From contig OZ252287.1 of assembly GCA_965250085.1 (NCBI GenBank), forward strand, positions 1,248,001-1,312,000: a stretch of DNA of 64,000 bases. The letters are read 5' to 3'. The notes under the pieces are model-generated. The model saw nothing but the letters and a program-made list of their open reading frames with translations, ran no database searches and was not told the origin of the DNA. The DNA is from Candidatus Altimarinota bacterium. Its GTDB lineage: Bacteria; Patescibacteriota; Gracilibacteria; CAIRYL01. Below are positions 6,104 through 60,142 of the stretch, in pieces. Position 1 is the first letter of the stretch, and every line of letters starts with the position of its first letter. A program made the translations under genes and the position numbers.

Positions 6104-6813
6104 GGCTCTTGAGTAGAATAATTACTTCAATTATTCTCTTAACATGCTTAAACACAGTAAAATATCGAATTATAAGATCAAAAAAATATTGAAGTGTTTT
6201 TGTGAAGATCTCAATGCATCAAAAACAGCAAATATTCTAGATCTCAATCGGAGAACGGTTGATCGATATTTTAATATTTTTAGAGAAAAGATTGCAAAGT
6301 TCTCTTTAGCACAGTCAAAGAGTTTTGGAGAATTTGAACTTGATGAAAGTTACTTTGGAGCAAAGAGAGTGAGAGGAAAGAGAGGAAGAGGAGCCGCAGG
6401 AAAGACTCCTGTCTTTGGAATCCTTCAAAGAGAAGGAAGGGTATTTGTTTCTATTGTAAAAGATTGCTCCAGAAAAGAGCTCCTACCTATTATTCAAGGA
6501 AAAATACTAGAAGGATCAACTATTCATACTGATGGATGGAGAGCTTATGATGGACTCATTCTCAATGGATATGATCACTATCGTATTCATCACTCAGAAA
6601 ATGAATTTGCACGAGGAAAATGTCATGTAAATGGTATTGAATCCTTTTGGTCTTTTGCGAAAAGAAGACTCTCTAAGTTTAACGGAATTGCTTCTCACAA
6701 GTTTAACTTTCACCTCAAAGAATGTGAGTGGCGATGGAACTATAAAGATCAAGATATTTTTGTTATAATGTCCAAAATTATCAGAGATTTTTAAAATCTC
6801 CTACTCTAGAGCC
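6104..6813 (+). mobile_element. IS1595-family (IS1016-like) insertion sequence, copy 1, 710 bp
   Basis: IRs GGCTCTTGAGTAGAATAATT / GGCTCTAGAGTAGGAGATTT; 8-bp target duplication TAAAAAAT (6096-6103, 6814-6821). Confidence 0.95.
6144..6794 (+). CDS. IS1595-family DDE transposase
   Basis: ELDESYFG, RGRGAAGKTPV, IHTDGW, HVNGIESFWS. Confidence 0.95.
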   Translation: MLKHSKISNYKIKKILKCFCEDLNASKTANILDLNRRTVDRYFNIFREKIAKFSLAQSKSFGEFELDESYFGAKRVRGKRGRGAAGKTPVFGILQREGRVFVSIVKDCSRKELLPIIQGKILEGSTIHTDGWRAYDGLILNGYDHYRIHHSENEFARGKCHVNGIESFWSFAKRRLSKFNGIASHKFNFHLKECEWRWNYKDQDIFVIMSKIIRDF

Positions 6814-6945
6814 TAAAAAATTAATGTTTGTCAAATATAAATTATATGTCTTAATAGAAATATGCAATTTGTACAGTAGCGAGTTTTATTAGTTCTTGAA
6901 ATAGACTACTTCAAAATATACAATTCCTCTGCTCTCAATATCCGT

Positions 6946-7035
6946 GGAGGGATGGCAGAGTGGTCGAATGCGACGGTCTTGAAAACCGTTAGGGCGGCAA
7001 CGTCTTCCAGGGTTCGAATCCCTGTCCCTCCGCCA
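6946..7035 (+). tRNA. tRNA-Ser(TGA)
   Basis: GGAGGGA/TCCCTCC acceptor stem, anticodon loop CTTGAAA, long variable arm, GGTTCGAATCC, encoded CCA. Confidence 0.97.
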
Positions 7036-7241
7036 CAGTTGAATTCGAGCTGAAAACGAGCTCGAAGAGCGAAGTTTGAAGCCGAAAATACTGTGTGCTG
7101 ATGAGTTCGCTCCCGCGAACGAACCAGTGCGTTGAATTCGAGACGAACGAAGTGAATCCGAAGATACTGCGTCCCGAGCTTTGCGAGGGACTTTGAAAAA
7201 AGATTAATTATCTTAGGATACTAGACCCGAATACCCTGCCA
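7036..7241 (+). repeat. tRNA-appended repeat: one degenerate unit plus one ~110-bp unit ending in a pseudo-tRNA 3' end
   Basis: 7132-7241 aligns with 47523-47634; both loci start CGCCAca(g/a)TTGAATTCGAG. Confidence 0.8.
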
Positions 7242-7249
7242 AAAAAATG

Positions 7250-9469
7250 CTAGTAATCCGGTGGAATGTCGTAGTAATCGAGCAAAAATTCGGTTACTTC
7301 CTTGAATATCGGTGCAGCGGTAGTTGATCCCCATGTGTTGTCTGTTGATTCCAGTCTCGGACGATCAAATTTTACGAGAACAACAAATTTAGGATGCTCC
7401 GCAGGAGCATATCCGACAAAGCTGGTGATCACACTTCCCAATTTACTGGTGTTTTCATATCCAGGGCCATCTGTGCGAGCAATTTGTGAAGTTCCGGTTT
7501 TTCCTGCTACTCGATATCCCTCTATTCTTGCAGGACGTGCCACTCCTTCTTCTACCGCAGAAATGAGCATAGCAGTGATCGTTTGAGCAGTGTCAGCTTT
7601 AAGGACATTTGTACTTTCGGGTTCGATTATTTCCAAAGTCCCATCAGCGTGATAAATCTCTTCAATAATGTGTGGTTCTGGCAAAAGGCCTCCATTGGCC
7701 ATTGCAGACCACGCGGTAACAACCTGCAAAGGAGTTGCAGAAATTCCTTGTCCAAATGCATGATTAAAGAGAGCTGCTGTCGACCACTGAGTATAGTAAC
7801 TCAGAGTGCCAGATTGTTCTTCATCGAGTTCTACGTACGTTTCTTTTCCAAAGCCATACTCTTCCAAATATTGGTGCATCAGACTTTTTCCCAATTTGCG
7901 AGCCACAAAGACCATTCCAAGATTTGATGATCTTTGAAGAGCTTCTTTCATGGTTTGCCATCCCAAATATTGGGAATCTGCATTTCGAATGGGGACGAGT
8001 CTTCCTCCCACATCTACCTCTACCGGCTTTTCTTCTAAATACTTTGTATTCGGGATTACTTCATTTTCATTAAGAGCAATCGCCATCACCAATGGTTTGA
8101 ATACCGACCCTGGTTCATAGATCTCCTGAACGGCCCTGTTGAGATATGCGCCAGGACCAGCAAAATTTTCATATACATAAAATTCTGGATCAAATCCAAG
8201 CTTCCAAGCTTCTTCATATTCTTCAAATGAAGAAGAGATGAGACCTTCGTCTGGGTCATTTGGATCCTTTTTAAAAAGGGGAGTGGTTTCAAATATTCTG
8301 TCGGTGTCCTCTGGAGTCGTTCTGCGAGTCAAATACACATTTCCAAATTCATTCGGATCAAAGGAGGGGGCATTTGCCAGAGCAAGAATTTTCCCGTTCT
8401 TTGGATTCATAACGATCACTTGTCCGGAATCAGCACGAAAGCGTTTTACTGCGGATTCCAAAACTTCTTCTACTTTTTTTTGTATAACACGATCAAGAGT
8501 GAGGACGATATTACTTCCATCAATTGCTTTCTGAAAATCTTCTACAGTGAGTTCTATAACACGCCCACGTGTATCTGTTTTTCGAGCATGCTTTCCTTTT
8601 TTTCCAAGGAGCACATTATTCATTTTCCCCTCTATGCCATATTGACCCACACCATCATGATTTAAAAATCCAATTATTTGCGACGCCAACTTTCCTTCCG
8701 GATAAAACCTCAACTGCTTTGACTCCAAAATTACGCCTTTGAAATAATCAGGGAGTGCCAAGGAAGTATCTTTTTTTTGAGCATACAGTTTTTCTCTGTC
8801 TTGTTGATGTTCTCTTGCATATTTCCTCTTCAGTTCTGTAATGTGCTCAGACATTTCAGGAGTGAGTTGTCTTTTGATGAGTACATATCTATTGTCGGTA
8901 TTAACCTTACGAAAAATCTCTTCTTCTTTTTTTTGCAGTGCTTCTGAAAAGGTGGGAAGAAGAGGATTGAGGGCAAAGTTTAATTCAGATTTTTTTTCAC
9001 TCTCCCCCTCCTTATTTCCATCGTCTTCCTGGACGGCGAGCTCGGGAAAAATAACACTGTTTTCAGGACAGTATTCAATGTTTTCTTTACATTTTTCATA
9101 TTCATCTTCGGTAAAGATAATGGGAGTAAGGAGCTCAGAAACTAGTTTTTTATCAGGGATTTCCTGAGCATCTATTCTCAGTTCATCAAGAGAAGTATTG
9201 AGTGCTAGTTTTACAATGTTTCCAGTCGCATATTCTTTCACAATGATGTCTCCTCTTCGCGGAGTAAACTCTGTTTCTGAAGATGTTTGTGTTTGAATCT
9301 TCGCTACGTATTTATTTCCCTGTAGGATTTGGAGATAAAACAGACGTGAAATAATGATGGCAAAGAGAACACCAATGAAGACTGTGAGTATCTTGATACG
9401 ATCGGGAAAGAGAACTTTCCCGGGAGCAGTGTATCGAGTCGACCATTTTTTTCTTCGTCTTTTAATCAC
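7250..9469 (-). CDS. Class B penicillin-binding protein (FtsI/PBP2-like transpeptidase)
   Basis: N-terminal TM, PRRGDI, RFYPEG, EPGSVFKP (SxxK), SSN, KTGT. Confidence 0.93.
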   Translation of the reverse strand: MIKRRRKKWSTRYTAPGKVLFPDRIKILTVFIGVLFAIIISRLFYLQILQGNKYVAKIQTQTSSETEFTPRRGDIIVKEYATGNIVKLALNTSLDELRIDAQEIPDKKLVSELLTPIIFTEDEYEKCKENIEYCPENSVIFPELAVQEDDGNKEGESEKKSELNFALNPLLPTFSEALQKKEEEIFRKVNTDNRYVLIKRQLTPEMSEHITELKRKYAREHQQDREKLYAQKKDTSLALPDYFKGVILESKQLRFYPEGKLASQIIGFLNHDGVGQYGIEGKMNNVLLGKKGKHARKTDTRGRVIELTVEDFQKAIDGSNIVLTLDRVIQKKVEEVLESAVKRFRADSGQVIVMNPKNGKILALANAPSFDPNEFGNVYLTRRTTPEDTDRIFETTPLFKKDPNDPDEGLISSSFEEYEEAWKLGFDPEFYVYENFAGPGAYLNRAVQEIYEPGSVFKPLVMAIALNENEVIPNTKYLEEKPVEVDVGGRLVPIRNADSQYLGWQTMKEALQRSSNLGMVFVARKLGKSLMHQYLEEYGFGKETYVELDEEQSGTLSYYTQWSTAALFNHAFGQGISATPLQVVTAWSAMANGGLLPEPHIIEEIYHADGTLEIIEPESTNVLKADTAQTITAMLISAVEEGVARPARIEGYRVAGKTGTSQIARTDGPGYENTSKLGSVITSFVGYAPAEHPKFVVLVKFDRPRLESTDNTWGSTTAAPIFKEVTEFLLDYYDIPPDY

Positions 9470-15474: not shown

Positions 15475-15550
15475 TGGTCGGGGAGACAGGACTTGAACCT
15501 GCGACAACGCGACCCCCAGCCGCGGACTCTACCAACTGAGCTACTCCCCG
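15475..15550 (-). tRNA. tRNA-Pro(GGG)
   Basis: Reverse complement CGGGGAG...CGCGG-CTGGGGG-TCGCG...GGTTCAAGTCC...CTCCCCGACCA. Confidence 0.95.
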
Positions 15551-17978: not shown

Positions 17979-19505
17979 ATGCGACAGAAAAAAAAATTGC
18001 CTTCGGCATTTTTGGAAAAATATAAAAAAGTTCTTTCGAATACAGAATTTAAAAAATTTCAGGAAGCCTGTACCCAGCCACTCAAGAAAAGTATTCGTAT
18101 CAATACGCTTAAAATCTCAGTTGCAGATTTCAAAAAAAGAGCAAAAAGAAAAAAATGGAAGCTCACTCCTGTTCCTTGGTGCAAAGAGGGGTTTTGGATT
18201 GATCGACCAGAGGAAGAGCAAAAAAGTATTCCGCTGGGAAAAACAGGGGAGCATATACTGGGACTTTTTTATATTCAAGAAGCCAGTTCTATGATTCCGG
18301 TAGCTGCCTTGTTTCATAATCAGCCCTTCGACTTCGCTCAGGGTGAGGAGAATCACCAAGTGATTCTTGACCTCACAGCAGCGCCAGGATCAAAAACAAC
18401 ACAATTGGCGGCGATAATGAAGAACACAGGATGTTTGATCGCAAATGAATTTTCTGCCAGTCGTATTAAAAAACTTTTTTCAAATGTACAAAGATGTGGC
18501 ATACGAAACACCGTTCTCACTCATTTTGATGGAAATTATTTTGGAAGGCATACGCCAGAAACTTTTGACGCTATCCTTCTTGATGCGCCTTGTACAGGTG
18601 AAGGGACGGTACGCAAAGATAGGGATGCGCTCAAAAACTGGAGCGAAAAAAGGATTCATTCAGCGGCAAAGATCCAAAGAAGGCTTCTTGCTTCCGCTTT
18701 CACGGCTCTCAAGCCAGGAGGAGTGCTGGTCTATTCCACGTGCACTTTGGGGCGGGAGGAAAATGAAGAGGTGTGTGGATTTTTGAAAGAAAAATTTGGT
18801 GATGTAGTGCAATTTGAATCTTTGAAAAATTTGTTTCCTGGAGCAGAAAAGTGTGTGACTCCAGAGGGATTTCTCCGTATCTGGCCACAGAGTTTTGATA
18901 CGGAAGGATTTTTTGTGGCACGAATTCGGAAAGCAGTACGAACGTTGCAATGCAACGTTCGTACGATACAAAATAGGAATTTTCCATTCTTACCTATCCC
19001 AAAATCTAAATTCCAAGAAATCCAAAAATATTATGCAGATCATTTTGGATTTTCTTTTTCACAGGTAGGGATTGATTGCAATCAATCCCTGTATATACGC
19101 GGCAGAGAAATATGGCTTTTCCCAAAAGGCGTTCAAGATTTTATCGGAAAAATCCACCTAGATCGCATTGGCATTAAACTTTGCGAAATCCATGCCAAGG
19201 GCATCAAAACATCACATGAAATGGCGGTAAATTTTGGTGGGGAATTTATGAAAAATACTCTAGAACTTTCTGCAAGTGAAGCTCAGGAATTTTATGCAGG
19301 GAAAGATATTAAACCCACCCAACCTCCCTTGTTAAGGGAGGAGCTTTTTTCTTCCCCCTTTGAAAAAGGGGGATTGAGGGGGATTTCTTCTGGTGAACTT
19401 CTCCTTACTTTCAACAAATTTCCTCTCGGGATAGGAAAAACACAAGGACAGAAGATAAAAAATCAATTGCCAAGGGATGTGGTGAGAGAAGGGGTCACGT
19501 TTTAA
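17979..19505 (+). CDS. rsmF: 16S rRNA m5C methyltransferase, RsmF-like
   Basis: FYIQEASSM, DLTAAPGSKT, ILLDAPCTGEG, VYSTCT, ENE. Confidence 0.9.
   Translation: MRQKKKLPSAFLEKYKKVLSNTEFKKFQEACTQPLKKSIRINTLKISVADFKKRAKRKKWKLTPVPWCKEGFWIDRPEEEQKSIPLGKTGEHILGLFYIQEASSMIPVAALFHNQPFDFAQGEENHQVILDLTAAPGSKTTQLAAIMKNTGCLIANEFSASRIKKLFSNVQRCGIRNTVLTHFDGNYFGRHTPETFDAILLDAPCTGEGTVRKDRDALKNWSEKRIHSAAKIQRRLLASAFTALKPGGVLVYSTCTLGREENEEVCGFLKEKFGDVVQFESLKNLFPGAEKCVTPEGFLRIWPQSFDTEGFFVARIRKAVRTLQCNVRTIQNRNFPFLPIPKSKFQEIQKYYADHFGFSFSQVGIDCNQSLYIRGREIWLFPKGVQDFIGKIHLDRIGIKLCEIHAKGIKTSHEMAVNFGGEFMKNTLELSASEAQEFYAGKDIKPTQPPLLREELFSSPFEKGGLRGISSGELLLTFNKFPLGIGKTQGQKIKNQLPRDVVREGVTF
18324..18346. repeat. In-frame CCCTGAGC...CGAAGGG-family repeat in rsmF (PFDFAQG)
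   Basis: Reverse complement matches intergenic copies at ~55981-56000, 7171-7190 and 47562-47580. Confidence 0.75.
18936..18964. repeat. In-frame 29-bp palindrome in rsmF (VRTLQCNVRT)
   Basis: GTACGAACGTTGCA-A-TGCAACGTTCGTAC. Confidence 0.85.
19065..19092. repeat. In-frame GTAG-type palindrome in rsmF (VGIDCNQSL)
   Basis: 24-bp perfect core AGGGATTGATTG/CAATCAATCCCT. Confidence 0.85.
19311..19386. repeat. In-frame double-hairpin CCCC/GGGG repeat in rsmF (PTQPPLLREELFSSPFEKGGLRGI)
   Basis: Same architecture as intergenic elements at 57233-57317 and 60018-60142. Confidence 0.85.
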
Positions 19506-20498: not shown

Positions 20499-20575
20499 GG
20501 AGCGGTAGTTCAGTTGGTTAGAACGCCACACTGTCACTGTGGAGGTCGCGGGTTCGAGTCCCGTCCGTTCCGCCA
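20499..20575 (+). tRNA. tRNA-Asp(GTC)
   Basis: GGAGCGG/CCGTTCC acceptor stem, CCACA-CTGTCAC-TGTGG anticodon arm, GGTTCGAGTCC, CCA. Confidence 0.97.
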
Positions 20576-20610
20576 GCACGTGCACTAATGCCGTGCTTGT
20601 ACCCGAGATT

Positions 20611-20631
20611 CCGCATATTCATGCGGTTTTT
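20611..20631 (+). terminator. Probable intrinsic terminator after tRNA-Asp
   Basis: CCGCAT-attc-ATGCGG followed by TTTTT. Confidence 0.55.
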
Positions 20632-36367: not shown

Positions 36368-37793
36368 GGGAGCGTACCAATTTGGGGGCCTGTGATTTAA
36401 GAATAACGGCTTGAGGTAAAGCTCTGGAGAAAGTTATCGAGATAAAGTAGAATATTTCTTCTTTTTTTCTTTAATTTATTTATGACAAATACAAAAAAAA
36501 CTTCGATGTCCTGTATGTGAAGGACTCAACACTATAAGAAAAGGGCGTCACCGGAACCATCTTCGTATTTACTGCCATGATTGCGGCAAGAAAATAACTC
36601 TCAACGACAAAAACAAAAAAGCAGAAGAAATCCTGAAGGCTCATCTCAACAGAAACTCATGCCGTATTCTCGCCGTAGAAAATGAGATGGATAAAAAGAC
36701 GATTTGCAAAATCATAAACAAGACAACGCCAAAACTAATTGATTCCAATGAGCTGACTCGTTTGATGTGTCCTCAGAATTATTGTGGGATTGTTTTGGTT
36801 GATGGTAAGTGTATTGGAGTAAAGGATTCCAAGCAGACTGTCACCGGAAGAAAAGCGAAGACAAAGAAGGGGCTTGTAGACATATCCTTCATGGATTATG
36901 AATCTCACGATATTCCTGTTCATATTTTGGCAGCTTCAGAGAATATGCATGATATTGAGCAAGGATTTTTAATGCTCAGGGAGATTGGCTATCCGCTGAA
37001 GGTGGTTGTTTGTGATGAGAGCATGGGAGAGACGATGAGTGTGGCGAAGAGAATCTTTCCCGATGTTATTGTTCAGCTCTGCCTTACTCACTATAGTGCT
37101 GCATTAGATAGGAATATGAAGGTGAACAGTGCCAAAAGAAAAATATCTTCCTTGGAGAAAAAACTAGCTCATCTCGGTAAGAGCATTCTCATATCTTCTC
37201 ACAAGTATAATAAGAATAAGGCTGTGGAATTGAGCAATCAATTAGCAGATATTGAACATGAATACCACTACCTGATTACTGTTCAGCATATTTTACAGAA
37301 AATATTTTGGTCGGCAATGACGACAGAAGACCTCAATAAATTAGAAGACGAGCTCAATATCGCTATTGCTGGAATGGATTTAAAGAAATATCCACATGCT
37401 CAAAAAATACGAGATGCTTATGATAACTACTACAAGAAAAGAGATTTGATTATTGCCTCTATCAACCATCCTGAGCTTGATATTCCAAGAACTACAAATC
37501 TCATTGAAGGCTATCACAGCACCTCTGTGGAGATTAGGCTCAGTGGTATTCGTGGGTTTGAGCATGAAGAAACTGCTGCCAATTATATAAATGCTCTTAT
37601 TCTCAGGAGAAGATTCTGGAAATTCACCGACTGTAAAACAAAATTCAAGCACTTGAATGGTCAATCTCCTCTTCAAGCTGCTCATCCAAAAAACCTATTT
37701 GGCTTCGACTTCCATTCTCATGATTGGATTCCTTTTTGTATCAATCTCAACCGCAAAAAATGACAGAACAGGTCCCCAAATTGGTACGCTCCC
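36368..37793 (+). mobile_element. IS256-like insertion sequence, 1426 bp
   Basis: 26-bp IRs GGGAGCGTACCAATTTGGGG(G/A)CCTGT (25/26 identical); 9-bp target duplication ATAACTTAG (36359-36367, 37794-37802). Confidence 0.9.
36482..37763 (+). CDS. Transposase with N-terminal Zn ribbon; frameshifted at an A8 run just after the ATG
   Basis: CPVC..CHDC in frame with 36687; VDGK, VVCDE, QLCLTH, RTTNLIEG. Confidence 0.8.
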
Positions 37794-46050: not shown

Positions 46051-47334
46051 TCATTGAAGAAACACCTCTCCGCCTTTCATTACAAGATTTCCCTTGAGAC
46101 ACCTGAGCATATTGCTTTTTTCCTTCGCGTTGCCATGCTGAAGGATAAAACAAATATACTCATGAGCAGTCGTGAGCTTCGCCTTTTCTCCATGTCTCAT
46201 TTGCTCCAGTCTATTTATCTTCTCTACTTCATGTTCAATCTTGCTATGAATATGGAATGAATCTTCTTTAATAGTCTCCACAACACTTGCCACCTCATCA
46301 ATGAGTTTCTCTTCTCTAATGTATTTCTCCTTACATGTTCCGTATCCAGCATACCTGTTACAGCGATAATATGAATATGCCTTTCCGTGTCTGTTTATAT
46401 GTGTTTCTCCAGAAACTCCTGATCCACAATTCCCACACTTGAAAATTTCATTGAAGTAGAACTGTTTTCTGCCCCATTTTCCTTTTAATGATGTCTTCAG
46501 TCGTTCTTGTGCTTCGCTGAAGAGCTTTTTTGTAATAATTGGTTTATATGAACCCTTGTACCAATTCCCTGATCCTGTGGGGTATTCAAATTCTCCATAG
46601 TAGTATGGATTCTTCAAAAGACGATACATCATACTGAAAGTCAGTTTTTTTCCTTTCGAAGTTCTGAATCCTTCATCAGTAAGAAATTCTAAGACTTGCC
46701 TTCCACTGTATTTTTCATTCACCAGATACTCAAATGCTTTCTTCACAAATGGTGCACGTTCTTCGTCTTGAATAACCGTACTCGGATCTTCAAATCGCTT
46801 TCCACGAAGAAGTTTGTATCCTATCGGTGGTGGTCCGGGACGAACTCCTGTTGCACACTTTGCTCGCATTCCTCTTTTGACATTCTTTGATCTATTATCA
46901 TTCTCCAGTTTTGCTTGAGAACAGAGAATCATCAGAAGAAATTTCTCATCAGGAGTATTGGTAAATGTTTGTCCGCTTGTTTGAATTTTTATCAATACTT
47001 GCTGATCCATCAAATCGACGAGTGAACCAAGATCACCAGCATTTCTACTGAGTCTATCTGGTGCCCATGTGAGAATGGCATTGAATCTTCTCTCCCTTAA
47101 TCCTTGGATAAGCTTCTCATAGCCCTTTCTGACTCCCGAGTCCTTAGCTGACTTACTTTCTTGAATTGTTTCTACAATAGAAATTCCTTCCTTTTCTGCC
47201 AACTGACTCATTTCTTTGATTTGGGAATCTATCGAGAGAGCTTGTCTTTCATCTGCTTCAGATGATTTGCGGGCATAGAGACAATACTTTAGTTCTATTT
47301 CTGCCGTTTCTGTGTGTTTTACATCATTCATCAT
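46051..47334 (-). CDS. Large serine recombinase (resolvase, recombinase and Zn-ribbon domains)
   Basis: YARKSSE, SIDSQ, DRLSRN, PPIGY, NPYYYG, CGNCG..YYRC. Confidence 0.95.
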   Translation of the reverse strand: MMNDVKHTETAEIELKYCLYARKSSEADERQALSIDSQIKEMSQLAEKEGISIVETIQESKSAKDSGVRKGYEKLIQGLRERRFNAILTWAPDRLSRNAGDLGSLVDLMDQQVLIKIQTSGQTFTNTPDEKFLLMILCSQAKLENDNRSKNVKRGMRAKCATGVRPGPPPIGYKLLRGKRFEDPSTVIQDEERAPFVKKAFEYLVNEKYSGRQVLEFLTDEGFRTSKGKKLTFSMMYRLLKNPYYYGEFEYPTGSGNWYKGSYKPIITKKLFSEAQERLKTSLKGKWGRKQFYFNEIFKCGNCGSGVSGETHINRHGKAYSYYRCNRYAGYGTCKEKYIREEKLIDEVASVVETIKEDSFHIHSKIEHEVEKINRLEQMRHGEKAKLTTAHEYICFILQHGNAKEKSNMLRCLKGNLVMKGGEVFLQ

Positions 47335-47486
47335 CTCTATTGATGACGCAGTAAAACCTTCCAGTCTAGGCTTTTTTTTAGATTACTAACTGCAATATTG
47401 TATAAATTATTTATACACATATGAATCAAAATAAGACACCCTTTTTTATAGTGTCTCATTTGTCTCATTTTGAAACTTCATATATC

Positions 47487-47634
47487 CTCAAAAGGGTACT
47501 AGACCCGAGTGTCCCGCCACAATTGAATTCGAGACGAACAAAGTGAGTCCGAAGATATTATGTCCCGAGTTTACGAGGGGCTTTGAAAAAAATAGATTAT
47601 TCTCAAAAGGGTACTATGCCCGAGCGCTTCGCCA
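47487..47634 (+). repeat. Two 33-bp direct repeats ending in CGCCA, 115 bp apart, flanking the unit shared with the tRNA-Ser locus
   Basis: ctcaaaagggtactagacccgagtgtcccgcca and ctcaaaagggtactatgcccgagcgcttcgcca. Confidence 0.85.
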
Positions 47635-47696
47635 GTTTTTATTTCGGATTGTGGGACGATAAAAACCATATTCTTTTTTAAAGAAAGAGAGTCGCA

Positions 47697-49460
47697 TTAT
47701 CCGAATGTGAAAGCATATATCTCAATTCCTGAATCCAAAAATTCCAGAGTGAGAGAATGTTGTTCTGGAGCAGAAAGCTGAATAAGCCGATACAAACGAT
47801 CTTCATCGAGGGTAACAATACCATCCTGCACATCTTCCCCAGCGTATTCGCTTTTTACAACCTCATCATCAAGAAACACTTGCACGCGAGCCCCTTTTTC
47901 CTGAGGACTCATAACCAGATAGACTTCCTGTGCTTCAAAATGAAGTTTCAGGTGGGAATTTGGAGATGGCATAGCTCGCTCTTCTCCAATAGTCCATTCT
48001 CCGCTGTAAGCAAGATTATTGAGAGGAATATTCTCTGGGAAAGAATACAGCGATGATTGATCTTGGAGAATATTTTCTGGCGACACAAAACGCTTGAGGC
48101 GATCATATCCCAAATATGATTCAGGAGTGCGCTGGTGCTTTGGAGTGGTATCTGGCGAACTGGAGATTTCTTCAGTGATATCAGCTCCAGTTTCTTTGAG
48201 AAGCATACGGATAAATTCTTCTGATTCCTGATATTTTCCTTCTCCAAAATGAGTGCGACGCACTTTTCCATTCTTATCGATAAAATATTTTGCCGGCCAG
48301 TAACGATTTTGATAACTGCGCCAGATCTTATAGTCATTATCTTGTACGACAGGATAAACAATATCGTAGTCCTTCATTGCCTTTTGTACATTTTTAGTAC
48401 TTCTCTCAAATTCAAATTCAGGCGTATGAACACCAATAATAACAAGTCCTTCATCTTTATATTTTTCATGCCAAGAGGTTATATATGGCAATGTGCGAAT
48501 ACAATTGATACAGCTGTATGTCCAAAAATCAATCAGCACAACCTTTCCACGCAACTCTTGGAGCGTCAATGGTTCGGAGTTGAGCCACTGGATTGCTCCT
48601 TGAAACTCTGGATTGGGAGCGAAAGAAAAACTGTCACCAGATATCTCTTTTTGCATATCTTTTTTGAGCGCTTCCGTATCTTTTCCACTCGTTTCTGGCA
48701 TATCGGAACTGTCTTCATAGAATTTATCTAGCTGCTTACGAACCACTTCATTTTCTTCCAATTTGGTGAGTCCAACTCCGTATTGTGGGAATGTATCGAG
48801 AATAAAAGTTTGAAATTGGCGGTCCAAATTTAAATATAAAGCGACTGCTAAAAGTACCATAAGGACACCAAATATTTTTTGAATCTTTGCGACATTGCGG
48901 GTCACCCAAGGAATTTTGTACAAGGCTTTTCTTCCGCTATAAATAATAAAAAACATCGGAAGAGCAGTTCCAATAGCATATGAAAGTGTTATCAGAATTG
49001 CTTCCAGAGTAACGGCACTGGTAGCCGCTAAAGTAATCACTGAAGCCAGAATAGGGCCAACACAAGGTGTCCAGAAAAGACCAAGACTGAGTCCAACGAT
49101 GACTCCACCACCAAATCCCTCCTTTTGTGTTTGTTTTGGTCCTTTGCTCGCAATCTTGGACATGAGCTGTTCCATCCACTCTTGAAAATGTGGAAGAAAG
49201 AGGCTAGCCCCAAAGAGTCCGAGTACCACTACTGCAACCAGTCGTAATACTTCAGAAGAAATACCAAAGGCTTTAAAAAGAGCAAAAGAAAAAACTGTAA
49301 AGAAAGTAAAGCTGAGGATAAAGCCCAGCATAATACCAAATGGACGTTTTTTCCCTCCCGTGAGTGAGCCAGAAAGCACGATTGGCAATACCGGAAGAAT
49401 ACAAGGAGAAAGGACAGTTACTATCCCCGCCAAAAAAGCAAAAAGGAGAAGAACGAGCAT
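47697..49460 (-). CDS. dipZ: DipZ (CcdA membrane domain plus thioredoxin plus C-terminal domain)
   Basis: SPCILPVLP, WTPCVGP, DFWTYSCINC, GVHTPEF. Confidence 0.92.
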   Translation of the reverse strand: MLVLLLFAFLAGIVTVLSPCILPVLPIVLSGSLTGGKKRPFGIMLGFILSFTFFTVFSFALFKAFGISSEVLRLVAVVVLGLFGASLFLPHFQEWMEQLMSKIASKGPKQTQKEGFGGGVIVGLSLGLFWTPCVGPILASVITLAATSAVTLEAILITLSYAIGTALPMFFIIYSGRKALYKIPWVTRNVAKIQKIFGVLMVLLAVALYLNLDRQFQTFILDTFPQYGVGLTKLEENEVVRKQLDKFYEDSSDMPETSGKDTEALKKDMQKEISGDSFSFAPNPEFQGAIQWLNSEPLTLQELRGKVVLIDFWTYSCINCIRTLPYITSWHEKYKDEGLVIIGVHTPEFEFERSTKNVQKAMKDYDIVYPVVQDNDYKIWRSYQNRYWPAKYFIDKNGKVRRTHFGEGKYQESEEFIRMLLKETGADITEEISSSPDTTPKHQRTPESYLGYDRLKRFVSPENILQDQSSLYSFPENIPLNNLAYSGEWTIGEERAMPSPNSHLKLHFEAQEVYLVMSPQEKGARVQVFLDDEVVKSEYAGEDVQDGIVTLDEDRLYRLIQLSAPEQHSLTLEFLDSGIEIYAFTFG

Positions 49461-56290: not shown

Positions 56291-56298
56291 TAAATTTT

Positions 56299-57008
56299 GG
56301 CTCTAGAGTAGGAGATTTTAAAAATCTCTGATAATTTTGGACATTATAACAAAAATATCTTGATCTTTATAGTTCCATCGCCACTCACATTCTTTGAGGT
56401 GAAAGTTAAACTTGTGAGAAGCAATTCCGTTAAACTTAGAGAGTCTTCTTTTCGCAAAAGACCAAAAGGATTCAATACCATTTACATGACATTTTCCTCG
56501 TGCAAATTCATTTTCTGAGTGATGAATACGATAGTGATCATATCCATTGAGAATGAGTCCATCATAAGCTCTCCATCCATCAGTATGAATAGTTGATCCT
56601 TCTAGTATTTTTCCTTGAATAATAGGTAGGAGCTCTTTTCTGGAGCAATCTTTTACAATAGAAACAAATACCCTTCCTTCTCTTTGAAGGATTCCAAAGA
56701 CAGGAGTCTTTCCTGCGGCTCCTCTTCCTCTCTTTCCTCTCATTCTCTTTGCTCCAAAGTAACTTTCATCAAGTTCAAATTCTCCAAAACTCTTTGACTG
56801 TGCTAAAGAGAACTTTGCAATCTTTTCTCTAAAAATATTAAAATATCGATCAACCGTTCTCCGATTGAGATCTAGAATATTTGCTGTTTTTGATGCATTG
56901 AGATCTTCACAAAAACACTTCAATATTTTTTTGATCTTATAATTCGATATTTTACTGTGTTTAAGCATGTTAAGAGAATAATTGAAGTAATTATTCTACT
57001 CAAGAGCC
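56299..57008 (-). mobile_element. IS1595-family (IS1016-like) insertion sequence, copy 2, 710 bp
   Basis: Same IRs as copy 1; 8-bp target duplication TAAATTTT (56291-56298, 57009-57016). Confidence 0.95.
56318..56968 (-). CDS. IS1595-family transposase
   Basis: Identical to 6144..6794 except one V to M change. Confidence 0.95.
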   Translation of the reverse strand: MLKHSKISNYKIKKILKCFCEDLNASKTANILDLNRRTVDRYFNIFREKIAKFSLAQSKSFGEFELDESYFGAKRMRGKRGRGAAGKTPVFGILQREGRVFVSIVKDCSRKELLPIIQGKILEGSTIHTDGWRAYDGLILNGYDHYRIHHSENEFARGKCHVNGIESFWSFAKRRLSKFNGIASHKFNFHLKECEWRWNYKDQDIFVIMSKIIRDF

Positions 57009-57318: not shown

Positions 57319-59712
57319 TTAATATCCCTTATTCTCAATCAGTTTCTCCAATACTTCTCTTGGGAACATTGGTTTCTTTTCTGCAAGTCCTTGGTGAAAG
57401 AGGACCGTCGACGGAGTGAGTGCGGGGAGCGTATTGGCTTCGATCACAATAATATTTCCAGTATCTATTTGAAGAAAAGCATCAATACGGGCGTAGCCAC
57501 GAATACCCAGTTTTTTAGCGACGAGTTCAATAGATTGTTTTGCTCTTTTTAGAACCTTTGGTTTCACGATTTCCGGAGGTGGGGGAGTAATATTGATTCC
57601 AGTGCCACCTTGGAATTTTTCTTCAACACTGAGCACCTCACCTTCGGCGACGGTAACACTGGGATTCAGTGCGCGCATCTTTTCTTTTTCTTCGAGAACT
57701 CCTGTAGTGATCTCTATCCATCCTGTTTTTTTACGAAAACTGATCCTTTTGCCCCACATACGGAGTGAATCCGTAACGACAAATGCTTCAAACATCAGAT
57801 TTTTAATTTCCCCCAAGGGCATCTCAATGGGAGTTGCTTGATGCAAAAATGTTTCCGGAGGGATACTGGGCATATTTTTTTTTGCAATGAATATATATTT
57901 CTCAAGATCATCTGGTGAAAAAAGTCGCACAATGCCAGATGAACATCCTTCATCTTGAGGCTTCACAATAACCGTCTTCGTCTCAAAATCTGTTGTCATA
58001 TGATCCCAGAACCTCCGTATTGCATCCTTTTTCATCCTTCCTAATAGTTGCAACTTCATTACCTGTTTCGGAGCGGTGAAAATGCCTTGTTTTTTGAGGC
58101 CACTCAATTTCTTCCCTGTTGCAAATTTGTCCATACAAAGTTTAGATGCTTTTGCATCAGATCCGTTGTATTTTATTTTTTTCTGAGAAAGCATTTTTTG
58201 CAATGTCCCATTTTCCCCAATACCACCATGAAGCCCCAAAAAGAGGAACTTTGGTTTTCTATTCAAAAACTTCCGAAGAGATATTTTTTGCGGAACAAAA
58301 AATGGTTCTGACGATTGCCCTTCTTCAAGGGCAAGACGGAGCCGCACTTTTTCTACCAGAAAATGAAGCCGGCTTTCATTCTCTCGTGCAGTGTGACAAT
58401 TCTCTTCTATTTCTTCCACTGTGTGATTGAGCGTAAAAGCATAGGGGAGATGCCATACGTTATGGTTCAGATCAAGAAGATATGGCTCGGGATGATATGC
58501 ACTTGATTCTCGAAGCTTGAGCCATACATTTGTTCCGCTCATAAGAGAAACTTGTCGCTCTGAAGTCTTTCCGCCAAAGAGGACGGGAATTGGCTTTTTA
58601 TTCTTTTTTACCCCCTCTAACTCCCCCTGAAAGGGGGAGGATATGTTGTATCTCCGACATGCATTTCTGACGACAAACTTCAGGAGATCTCGATGACTCA
58701 TGCCAATACGTGCCGATTGCTGAAAGAGAAAGCTGTTTTGTTCCATACCACTGACGGGATTGAAATCCGGAAACCAAATATTTCCATCCTTCATGAGCCA
58801 TCCGTCGAAACGTGCAAAGTCCCGCATTCCCAAAATTGTAAAAAGTTGCTCAGCCTGTACTTGAATCCGTTCTACTATTTCATTTGAAAATCGTGGAGGG
58901 CAATGATATTTCACATGATTTGTCGGCAGATATTTCTTCCGATAGTCAAGGATATGATGTTTTTCTTTGAGTTCTTTTTGTTTTTGAAACATTTCTATTT
59001 CCGTGGGCAATATAGCCACTGGCATTCCAAATCTGTTTTGCAGGATGATCACTGTAAATTCTGTTCCTTCACAGAAAGGCTCTATTACAACTCTGGTATC
59101 AATGCGCTTGGAAAATAAATAATCTACTTTCTCAAGTGCTTCTTGTACACTTGTTACGGCAAACACTCCTATACTTGAGCCACCGGAAGCAGGCTTAATA
59201 ATTGCTTTTTTTAGATGATGATTTTTAAAAAACTTCGTAAGTATTTTTTTATGATCTTTATGATATATTTTCAAAACCTCTGAAGGAAGTGTGTAGAATC
59301 CCTGATCTCGAATATATTCATTAGCAATGTATTTATCAAAAGCACGCTTACATGATGCAGCATTGGATCCGATGTATGGAATACGATGGCGTTCCAAAAA
59401 TCTTTGGAGTTCTCCATCTTCTCCAAATGGTCCATGAATAACGGGAAAGGTAATGTCCGTAGACCTTAGGAGTTCCACAAGTTGTCTCTGAGACAACGGC
59501 TTCGCTGTCTGGCTGAGTTTAAAGTCAAAATCAGAGGGTGTATTGGAATACAGTGCAGAAGGAGAGATATGATATGACCTTTTTTTCTGATCAAAATACA
59601 CGGGAATAATTTCAACTCCATCTCCTTTGAGGTGATCAAGTACTGATCGTGCAGAATTGAGAGAGATGCCACGCTCGAGGGATGGGCCACCAGAGAGGAG
59701 TGCTATGCGCAT
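57319..59712 (-). CDS. ddl: Double-domain D-alanine--D-alanine ligase family protein
   Basis: Two ATP-grasp units: GGPSLERGIS..HGPFGEDG..ARFD and GGKTSERQVS..HGGIGENG..ARID..EANTLP. Confidence 0.85.
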   Translation of the reverse strand: MRIALLSGGPSLERGISLNSARSVLDHLKGDGVEIIPVYFDQKKRSYHISPSALYSNTPSDFDFKLSQTAKPLSQRQLVELLRSTDITFPVIHGPFGEDGELQRFLERHRIPYIGSNAASCKRAFDKYIANEYIRDQGFYTLPSEVLKIYHKDHKKILTKFFKNHHLKKAIIKPASGGSSIGVFAVTSVQEALEKVDYLFSKRIDTRVVIEPFCEGTEFTVIILQNRFGMPVAILPTEIEMFQKQKELKEKHHILDYRKKYLPTNHVKYHCPPRFSNEIVERIQVQAEQLFTILGMRDFARFDGWLMKDGNIWFPDFNPVSGMEQNSFLFQQSARIGMSHRDLLKFVVRNACRRYNISSPFQGELEGVKKNKKPIPVLFGGKTSERQVSLMSGTNVWLKLRESSAYHPEPYLLDLNHNVWHLPYAFTLNHTVEEIEENCHTARENESRLHFLVEKVRLRLALEEGQSSEPFFVPQKISLRKFLNRKPKFLFLGLHGGIGENGTLQKMLSQKKIKYNGSDAKASKLCMDKFATGKKLSGLKKQGIFTAPKQVMKLQLLGRMKKDAIRRFWDHMTTDFETKTVIVKPQDEGCSSGIVRLFSPDDLEKYIFIAKKNMPSIPPETFLHQATPIEMPLGEIKNLMFEAFVVTDSLRMWGKRISFRKKTGWIEITTGVLEEKEKMRALNPSVTVAEGEVLSVEEKFQGGTGINITPPPPEIVKPKVLKRAKQSIELVAKKLGIRGYARIDAFLQIDTGNIIVIEANTLPALTPSTVLFHQGLAEKKPMFPREVLEKLIENKGY

Positions 59713-60017
59713 AAAAATTAAGTAATAAGTGGCAAGTAAACAAGTAGGAATTACGAATGAAGCCTGTCCGCCTTTTTTCGGCATGGTCTGTGGCGGAAAT
59801 TACGGATAAAAAAATAAAATGGATTTTAAATTGCTAACGGCTACAGGCTAAGAGCTAACAGCTCTTAAATCAATATTTTTGCAAAGAGTTTGTATGCTCA
59901 AAATATCGTTTCTATTAAACTATAGAAGGATATCCTTCGCAAGAAAAATGTACGTTTTTTAGATTTTTTGCAAAAATTTATTTTTTATAAAAAAATACAC
60001 AACTCTGTCTTTTTCTC

Positions 60018-60142
60018 AAAATCCCCCTCAATCCCCCTTTTGCAAAGGGGGAGGAAAACTCTACAAATTTCCCTTCTTGCAAAGGAAGAAGAAATCTCTA
60101 TGAGAATCCCCCTCTTTTAAAAAGAGGGGACAGGGGAGATTT
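60018..60142. repeat. Intergenic triple-hairpin CCCC/GGGG repeat
   Basis: tccccctcaatcccccttttgcaaagggggagg ... tccccctcttttaaaaagaggggacaggggagattt. Confidence 0.8.

Follow-up and report, generated by a model that had tools for sequence, protein, structure and literature searches.

Pseudo-tRNA tails and a covarying hairpin family at putative tandem insertion junctions behind tRNA genes of a Candidatus Altimarinota bacterium

The attC sites of integrons are imperfect palindromes with paired core boxes, recombined by the tyrosine recombinase IntI, and bacterial genomes also hold small, structured, non-autonomous repeats such as the miniature inverted-repeat transposable elements (MITEs), the repetitive extragenic palindromes and bacterial interspersed mosaic elements (REP/BIME) and the palindrome-associated transposable elements (PATEs) of IS200/IS605. 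Tandem insertion at tRNA genes is likewise known already. The ssrA islands of Dehalococcoides, in the part of their description available, use the serine recombinase DsiB and integrate at the 3′ part of a tRNA-like gene (PMC3146451). For the tycheposons of Prochlorococcus, the available text describes partial tRNAs at the joints, degenerate remnants that pile up and a minority of members with large serine recombinases (bioRxiv 10.1101/2020.12.28.424599). Here we analyse 64,000 nt of a Candidatus Altimarinota bacterium (contig OZ252287.1, positions 1,248,001 to 1,312,000; this whole stretch is called the window below), in which a short gene-less cassette, closed by a pseudo-tRNA tail, stands at the right end of a candidate integrative element that begins at tRNA-Asp. 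On balance, we lean towards reading the site as a tandem insertion at ...GCCA ends, with a pile-up of junctions on the displaced 3′ side of tRNA-Asp. Its two building blocks, a hairpin that we call T and a tRNA-like tail that we call the P-arm, each appear to belong to larger repeat families that are undescribed in the small-genome bacteria of the candidate phyla.

From left to right, tRNA-Asp with its ..CCGCCA end is followed by the proposed element (20576-47482), by P-arm #1 ending in ..CCCGCCA, by T, a second small hairpin 3′ of the T stem P1 (hp2), a spacer and P-arm #2 ending in ..TTCGCCA, and then by host flank. The cassette (~115 nt, 47520-47634) has no open reading frame (ORF), and P-arms #1 and #2 flank 47520-47597. 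A sister cassette lies behind tRNA-Ser(TGA). The features of the two loci are as follows, R1 being our covariance model of the T hairpin and D2, D5 and D15 the repeats described below.

47433..47482, plus strand: module upstream of the P-arm, with a GACAC..GTGTC hairpin, two GTCTCATTT repeats and a spacer.
47483..47519, plus strand: P-arm #1, a T-arm/acceptor-like tail with a CCA end, read as the right attachment site (attR) of the putative element 20576-47519; D5, D15.
47516..47565, plus strand: T hairpin, short form without P3; R1 65.4 bits, E 8.8e-13.
47562..47581, plus strand: hp2, GTCCCGAG..CGAGGGGC, from minimum free energy (MFE) folds.
47582..47597, plus strand: A-rich cassette spacer, from the sequence, aligning to 7192-7208.
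47598..47634, plus strand: P-arm #2, the second pseudo-tRNA tail, at which the ~115-nt cassette ends on its right; D5.
6946..7035, plus strand: tRNA-Ser(TGA), with two T units downstream; ARAGORN, Rfam.
7032..7131, plus strand: T unit 1, long form with P3 present, and its hp2; R1 74.9 bits.
7125..7191, plus strand: T unit 2, short form, and its hp2; R1 52.8 bits; D2; sister of 47516-47581.
7209..7241, plus strand: P-arm #3, right end of the sister cassette; D15.

The window holds three CCA-ending pseudo-tRNA tails (7209-7241, 47483-47519 and 47598-47634), together with the repeats D2 (7132-7201 versus 47523-47592, 79% identity), D5 (47483-47531 versus 47598-47646, 76% identity over 49 nt) and D15 (7215-7244 versus 47493-47522, 80% identity). 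In a global alignment the units 7132-7241 and 47523-47634 are identical at 89/114 columns, which bears out the near-equality claimed in a preliminary description of this DNA. The same description had placed three 26-nt sites in the register of a tRNA T-arm and acceptor end. The repeats and the sites are present, and the matches to the 3′ end of tRNA-Asp are exactly as it gave them for 47494-47519 (19/26) and 47609-47634 (18/26), whereas 7216-7241 is weaker, with 15/26 to tRNA-Asp and 15/26 as its best match to any tRNA end. P-arm #3 and P-arm #1 are identical at 21/26. It is hardly credible that the tRNA-end likeness and the repeats are chance or low-complexity matches. Such an explanation could appeal to the 15/26 of the third site and to the tRNA ends, which are alike among themselves at a mean of 16.7/26; it is refuted by the three-copy core GGGTACTAGACCCGA, which at up to two mismatches is confined to these three window sites across the 1.37-Mb genome, by the R1 E values of T matches (1e-9 to 1e-15), by the strong covariation in T and by the dozens of homologous P-arms that extend 10 nt past the search pattern. 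Among the 3982 plus-strand genomic 26-mers that end in GCCA, 10 reach at least 18/26 to any tRNA end, real tRNAs included.

T is the hairpin TTGAATTCGAG...CCGAAGATACTG, and the TTGAATTCGAG...GAATCCGAAGATACTGTG portion of the unit is an element distinct from the rest. In stem P1, the last bases of the CCA plus CAGT pair with ACTGTG; an internal loop TGAA/GA follows, then P2, in which TTCG-A-GAT pairs with ATC-CGAA and leaves a bulged A, then a GA/GA step and the variable tip P3, which is missing from both window cassette copies. For the copy at 47516-47565, P1 takes CA from the preceding CCA plus CAAT and pairs them with ATTATG. The hp2 behind T has the form TCCCG..CGGGA in most relatives, and one that starts TCCCGAG is found in the source genome only at the two window cassette copies. 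A hammerhead-like arrangement, CTGATGAG-stem-loop-CGAA, in the hp2 of unit 1 (7097-7124) was rejected as it gave no Rfam hammerhead match, even at E ≤10.

The source genome is a single contig of 1.37 Mb with 40% G+C and 40 tRNA genes by ARAGORN, and CCA is encoded in all 40/40 of them; the window contains tRNA-Ser(TGA), tRNA-Pro (15475-15550) and tRNA-Asp (20499-20575), found by both ARAGORN and Rfam. With tmRNA detection on, ARAGORN reports no tmRNA gene genome-wide. R1 detects eight T copies in this genome, five of them beginning no more than 4 nt from the 3′ end of a tRNA. T starts 3 nt past the CCA of tRNA-Ser(TGA), tRNA-Ser(GCT), tRNA-Gly(TCC) and tRNA-Thr(TGT), a weaker copy follows tRNA-Arg(TCG), and further copies stand behind two CCA-ending sequences that are not tRNAs, at genome position 612579 and at the 47,520 cassette site. 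The gene for tRNA-Ser(TGA) is followed by two hairpin units in tandem; unit 1 (7036-) comes directly after CGCCA, while unit 2 (7132-), the homologue of 47523-47634, is preceded by ...CAGTGCG and no CGCCA. The claim that the repeat starts after CGCCA at both loci therefore stands for the 47520 site and, at tRNA-Ser, for unit 1 only. The stacking of gene-less short units at CCA-ending tRNA or tRNA-like ends, also proposed earlier, is visible in the tandem order.

A T pattern scan across genomes gave 120 stretches; among the 80 listed, R1 matched at 31/80 loci, and the remaining ones are chance matches in unrelated taxa. The related records that share the motif are assigned to Peribacteria, Peregrinibacteria and Gracilibacteria, lineages of the candidate phyla radiation, and R1, run on 61 related genomes, detects T in 14 of them, patchily over families and with up to 25 copies per genome. 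A short-form T from a genome of another family differs from window unit 2 at 1/42 nt. In 30 copies from relatives the T pairing amounts to 94.6%, compared with 75.2% in shuffles, 0/500 of which reach the observed value, and with at most 63% in slid controls. The stems covary, both sides having changed in 13/16 pairs in an alignment that was fitted to the R1 model. Unit 1 folds with an MFE of -37.8 kcal/mol (z -5.65), and 0/200 shuffles are as good. No Rfam family matches T, and only the three tRNAs pass in the window; at E ≤10 over 6900-7300 the T units reach at most 15.3 bits, against gathering scores of 40-50. The T pattern has five matches in viral contigs, none of them a full R1 match (best 13.7 bits). 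Wobble pairs give no strand-specific signature, with 20 G-U/U-G against 15 A-C/C-A among 1017 paired cells; G-U is therefore not commoner than A-C, and T may act as RNA or as folded DNA.

Among the 30 T copies in relatives, 19 touch a tRNA or tRNA fragment and 11 lie at loci with no tRNA. Six stand directly behind a sense tRNA and four are later units behind a tRNA; five follow a duplicated tRNA-Gln 5′ fragment ending in ..GTCGCCA|AG, with the intact gene 120-270 nt downstream; three have in front of them a 3′ fragment, in antisense, of tRNA-Glu, tRNA-Arg or tRNA-Asp, and at these the intact gene again lies downstream and there are 22-33-nt direct repeats; and one lies against the 5′ end of an antisense tRNA. 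Of 38 copies in a second set, 10 are directly behind a sense tRNA, and others come after pseudo-tRNA tails. The clearest cases have, in the direction of T, the layout target, T, hp2, spacer, copy of the target sequence and rest of the target. In G053 and L073 (genomes and contigs are named by our own handles where they must be told apart), the tail before T fuses a conserved block to the final 19-20 nt of the neighbouring tRNA, copied exactly, and G053 has arrays of identical 109-nt units. On the tandem-insertion reading, the T family would insert beside the ...CCA ends of tRNAs, tRNA fragments and tRNA mimics, its far end would copy the preceding sequence, and newer insertions at the CCA end would push older ones outward to give the tandem order.

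These contexts also bear on the possibility, which we regard as doubtful, that T is immobile and belongs natively to tRNA 3′ trailers as an RNA module, which would be transcribed together with the tRNA and serve as a processing stalk or insulator, with its P1 pairing onto the CCA end. The repeats and pseudo-tails would then come from unequal crossing-over and from elements inserting into T-bearing tRNAs. Most T copies are indeed co-oriented with and directly 3′ of tRNAs, P1 takes in 2-4 nt of the CCA end, and the conserved purine-rich internal loops (UGAA/GA and GA/GA) and the bulged A resemble RNA motifs. The G053 and L073 tails would be expected if T were the original trailer displaced by insertion into the T-loop, and the G053 arrays look like slippage. 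An immobile trailer is harder to reconcile with the wobble counts, with the T copies that are antisense to the tRNA or behind 5′ fragments, with a patchy spread in which copy number and tRNA partner vary, and with a near-identical T copy in genomes of different families; moreover, it leaves the P-arm at the far end of both window cassettes unexplained.

Two further observations concern sequences next to tRNAs or T. In L099, L060, L081, L122 and L095, T is preceded by a common ~30-nt sequence, ..ATCACGCTGTCGAAGCCTGTCATCCCCA, in which ARAGORN finds no tRNA and which may be where a different conserved RNA or element ends. Shared tRNA trailers of a second class start with TTCGACTC, end with ..GCTCATGG and have a variable hairpin in the middle; they are carried by tRNA-Arg(CCT), tRNA-Leu(CAG), tRNA-Glu(TTC) and tRNA-Leu(CAA), all outside the window, and their start also occurs behind a tRNA in the relative locus L114.

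The P-arm consists of the conserved block AAAGGGTACTAGACCCGAG plus ~10 nt ending in CCA and resembles a tRNA T-arm and acceptor end. A metagenome pattern scan yielded 70 distinct P-arm contexts, 51 of which run on to CCA exactly 10 nt past the pattern, mostly as ..TAGCCAGCCA, and then diverge; the upstream module is present at 22 of these 51 canonical arms. P-arm #1 and ~50 nt upstream of it, with the GACAC..GTGTC hairpin and the two GTCTCATTT repeats, recur in the related genomes L184 and L186, and on the metagenome contig L198 module and arm lie 145 nt from a recombinase that is 81% identical to the window enzyme, with spacing and orientation alike. Similarity between P-arms stops sharply at CCA, in L198, L184 and L186 as well as in many metagenome contigs. 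A [CT]CCG[AT]G box is found after 12/47 P-arms and upstream of 0/49. The P-arm pattern has 0 matches in viral contigs.

Eight metagenome contigs (L249, L255, L211, L216, L247, L254, L206 and L234) contain two to three P-arm copies 0.3-1.4 kb apart. The P-arms in these arrays are identical 29-nt pseudo-tRNA tails (AAAGGGTACTAGACCCGAGTAGCCAGCCA), and the layout is integron-like: in L249, L255 and L211, where the arrays were fully read, each interval has a single small ORF in the same orientation, whose end falls a few bases short of the next tail. No recombinase is visible in any of the eight arrays. The ORFs beside P-arm modules encode varied cargo (transporters, methyltransferases, an AbiE pair, Fur and others), and 1/30 is a serine recombinase, that of L198, with no other recombinase among them. 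T is present at 1/70 P-arm loci. The metagenome contig L215 provides a second, independent joint of a P-arm CCA with T, where T and an hp2 ending in ..CGCCA stand between the P-arm and the sequence that normally follows it; pseudo-tRNA tails therefore serve T units in the way that tRNA ends do.

The preliminary description had taken the unit for a possible passenger of the serine recombinase. In the strong form of that proposal, the 115-nt unit would be non-autonomous, like the cis-mobilizable elements (CIMEs), and the adjacent recombinase would bind the tRNA-like arm and move the cassette in trans between tRNA ends. We consider this unlikely, although several features speak for it. The right end of the cassette is homologous to that of the recombinase element beyond the tRNA-like part (TATYCTCAAAAGG..; D5 and D15), the hp2 start TCCCGAG that is exclusive to the two window T copies resembles the [CT]CCG[AT]G box that follows P-arms, and serine recombinases at tRNA genes are common in the source genome. 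The two cassettes also share the hp2-to-P-arm joint (within the 89/114 alignment), which points to one minimal unit placed at two sites rather than to two separate decays. Elsewhere, however, T is unlinked to serine recombinases. The Resolvase domain (PF00239) is found in 0/5 T-rich genomes (86-98% complete), and T in 0/9 genomes with recombinase orthologues. Of the 49 ORFs (≥160 aa, 25 loci) that lie up to 1.5 kb from T, 0/49 encode a recombinase, transposase or reverse transcriptase, the neighbours there being housekeeping genes; 8/13 T-positive relatives have no match to the window recombinase at E 1e-15 or better. The low frequency of T at P-arm loci and the lack of a GCCA before unit 2 of the sister cassette tell against the proposal in the same way, and for the T part of the unit it is not supported. 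On these distributions, T is an independent, separate and widespread repeat family that does not travel with serine recombinases. A deletion product of the neighbouring element was also rejected as the origin of the cassette, whose left end is T and lacks the GTGCACTAAT motif of that element, T being an independent family.

The neighbouring element is delimited by the following features.

20499..20575, plus strand: tRNA-Asp(GTC), proposed integration target on the left attachment side (attL); ARAGORN, Rfam tRNA.
20576..20630, plus strand: left element end P′, with a hairpin GCACG-TGCACTAATGC-CGTGC, TTGTACCCGAG and a terminator-like hairpin plus T run.
46051..47334, minus strand: large serine recombinase of 427 aa; Pfam Resolvase, Recombinase and Zn_ribbon_recom, with the catalytic motifs in the translation.

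We interpret P-arm #1 as the attachment arm at the right end of a putative integrated element of ~27 kb (20576-47519), which would have inserted directly after the CCA of tRNA-Asp; its large serine recombinase would lie 160 bp from the right end, and the P-arm would be that right end, a mimic of a tRNA tail. The ~115-nt gene-less cassette, made of T, hp2, A-rich spacer and its own P-arm, would have been placed directly after the CCA of P-arm #1. At the left end, the hairpin directly 3′ of the tRNA-Asp CCA has the loop TGCACTAATG. The left-end motif GTGCACTAAT is also found behind tRNA-Ser(GGA) in the source genome (76% over 177 nt), and in L184 and L259 it follows P-arms or CCA ends; a P-arm is there joined directly to the GTGCACTAAT motif, as an attP would be, a joint that tandem insertion fits equally well. 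With P′ at 20576, the P-arm at 47519 and the two joined elsewhere, both element ends are therefore present here. The earlier suggestion that the tail by the recombinase is an integrative-element end gains from this junction with the tRNA-Asp-trailing motif in relatives and from the recurrence of the tail, with a ~100-nt upstream module, beside the 81%-identical recombinase. The attL and attR sites have only ..CCGCCA in common. Between the ends lie genes for the large and small terminase subunits, two ParB/methylase proteins, a transglutaminase-like giant, AAA_5, an insertion sequence (IS) copy, radical-SAM, PnuC and transporter proteins, and the recombinase. The IS (1426 nt, window 36368-37793) is bounded by terminal inverted repeats of 34 nt and has an ORF of 358 aa that matches no Pfam family, and an identical copy is found at genome 783023-784448, near another serine recombinase island.

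The 427-aa protein has the domains of large serine recombinases, with PDB sequence matches to the TP901-1 integrase catalytic domain, and its start is 160 bp from 47494, in agreement with the distance given previously. Orthologues occur in nine relatives at 44-67% identity, in addition to the 81% of L198; around them synteny is limited to the gene itself, and in G031 a P-arm lies 7.8 kb from the orthologue. Immediately upstream of the point where the recombinase starts lies a conserved ..AGTCTAGG.., which we considered as the crossover site and dropped for a promoter or 5′-UTR (untranslated region) reading, because many more sequences support a boundary of the P-arm at CCA. Four more ORFs for large serine recombinases enter the 3′ ends of tRNA-Gly(GCC), tRNA-Met, tRNA-Ile and tRNA-Gln(CTG) in antisense direction, with overlaps of 12-44 nt; three have all domains, and the tRNA-Gly copy is without the catalytic domain. 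The fifth, broken into two ORFs, stands ~155 nt downstream of tRNA-Ala(GGC) and does not overlap it. These genes are as follows.

262417-263637 (minus strand), 339964-341649 (plus strand), 360930-362681 (plus strand), 780239-781804 (minus strand) and 603320-604655 (minus strand), in genome coordinates: further recombinases, all outside the window.

The association of serine recombinases with tRNA genes that had been proposed is supported by these five further genes or pseudogenes, which point in antisense into or towards tRNA 3′ ends. Short BLAST searches found no displaced tRNA 3′ fragments at the other recombinase islands. As a separate observation, tRNA-Met and tRNA-Ala have a common trailer sequence. 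What speaks for a possible link between recombinase and P-arm is that they are adjacent here and in L198 and that the serine recombinases of this genome sit at tRNAs.

Taken together, the tandem-insertion reading would have site-specific recombination as the route of insertion, recombinase action on the P-arm, and an order of events from older units outside to newer ones at the CCA end. Several results weigh against it. None of the nine recombinase orthologues (44-67%) has a P-arm of this sequence within 520 nt, and this recombinase is found within 2 kb at only 1/70 metagenome P-arm loci. The last 12 nt of each P-arm point to no particular tRNA, giving ties among many tRNAs. P-arms #1 and #2 are only 76% alike, whereas in relatives the T cassettes are flanked by perfect repeats, and the folds of the window T copies themselves, at 47516- (z -1.1) and in unit 2 (z -0.77), are about as good as those of shuffles. 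No capsid or tail genes were seen among the proteins of the 27-kb mosaic, and it is two end motifs alone that would make the 27 kb one element. Finally, no empty site, circle or polymorphism was seen in the assembled contigs, so that we only infer the insertion itself. The read data comprise four runs of one sample, in which an 18,561-nt contig (window 37764-56324) shows no joints or loose ends at 47519, 47597 or 47634 in any of the four runs, rare variants being invisible in contigs. The source genome is the sole member of its genus among the genomes compared. The ORF immediately to the right of the site (47697-49460) encodes a DsbD/thioredoxin protein and no recombinase; in the empty-site comparison the DsbD gene had one family-level match, at 34% identity and with no tRNA nearby, and a 24-nt pattern from the host flank had 0 matches in metagenome contigs.

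Beyond the tandem-insertion reading, we put forward as speculation two linked possibilities, which jointly we hold to be quite improbable. T may be a mobile unit without protein genes, whose folded nucleic acid, with P1 formed on the target ..CCA and the first inserted bases, directs insertion at tRNA ends and mimics of them via a host enzyme. The P-arm system may, in turn, do with a serine recombinase what the integron does, capturing single-gene cassettes into an array that is anchored at a tRNA, with a 29-nt pseudo-tRNA tail at the end of every cassette; its smallest cassette, an empty one, would be what the window shows.

Other repeats and genes of the window were recorded as well. An exact inverted repeat of 714 nt lies at 6104-6817 and 56295-57008; each copy encodes a 216-aa ISXO2-like (IS1595 family) transposase, and one copy stops 129 nt short of tRNA-Ser(TGA). 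A 40-nt inverted repeat, rich in GGGGG/CCCCC and 95% complementary (19347-19386 and 60019-60058, 40.6 kb apart), has murB adjoining one copy. A 102-nt direct repeat occupies 2337-2438 and 2590-2691 (93% identity, spacing 253 nt), and at 57319-59784 an 821-aa ORF has D-Ala-D-Ala ligase domains in two sets, an apparent tandem fusion.

The literature searched contains no description of the T and P-arm motifs, and the accessible text of the Peribacteria genome paper mentions no such repeats (PMC4736985). The Rfam and literature searches turned up no description of three features: a hairpin family of ~60-100 nt, supported by covariation, marking tRNA junctions throughout a candidate-phyla class; a pseudo-tRNA tail, strongly conserved, with which small cassettes end in many metagenomes; and a 115-nt unit built from both. 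Should T act as RNA, it bears on the finishing of CCA-encoding tRNA 3′ ends in reduced bacteria; a site at the DNA level would make T a new small mobile element that targets tRNA ends; and if its own fold guides insertion, it would belong to a structure-guided insertion system of an undescribed kind. The P-arm arrays point to simple cassette capture in genomes otherwise thought to be poor in mobile DNA, and the tRNA-overlapping serine recombinases found here are candidate site-specific integrases with natural tRNA targets.

The metagenome P-arm arrays resemble integrons in being built of co-oriented single-ORF cassettes that each end just before a conserved site, and T shares with attC a stem, an unpaired spacer, a bulged base and a variable tip. 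They differ from integrons in that the P-arm repeats are direct and tRNA-like, the T stems lack attC core boxes and the T cassettes are gene-less, and no IntI-type tyrosine recombinase is present among the 30 ORFs beside P-arm modules. Like the MITEs, REP/BIME and PATEs, T is ~100 nt long, gene-less, hairpin-forming, multi-copy, patchy and at times tandem; unlike them, it has no terminal inverted repeats, sits by tRNA CCA ends or within tRNA genes, and has direct target repeats of 22-33 nt, and no partner transposase was identified.

In the part of their description available, the Dehalococcoides ssrA islands likewise have tandem units split by repeats of the gene 3′ end, some of them without integration genes, and a recombinase on the reverse strand by the junction, as five other tRNA-abutting recombinases have here (PMC3146451). 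The repeat there is a true 20-bp copy of ssrA, whereas the P-arm is just 15-19/26 tRNA-like; the recombinase of our locus is at the far element end, the 115-nt cassette is gene-less and several tRNAs are involved. Tycheposons, as far as the available text describes them, also have several tRNA targets and newcomers that push older elements outward, but they are kilobase-sized, with integrase and replication genes, and that text reports no conserved structured junction hairpin (bioRxiv 10.1101/2020.12.28.424599). With the CIMEs, in the sections of their account available, the cassette shares both att-type ends, the absence of integration or transfer genes and a place in tandem with a recombinase element at a target-gene end; CIMEs, however, are decayed versions of the neighbouring element type, whereas the left end here is T and not the GTGCACTAAT of the 27-kb element, and T comes from an independent family that is present in genomes without serine recombinases (PMC5704250). 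Overall, the locus would seem distinct from these closest known systems in that its tail is a mimic and not a copy, its empty cassette is extremely small, and its joint carries a hairpin with a wide distribution of its own.

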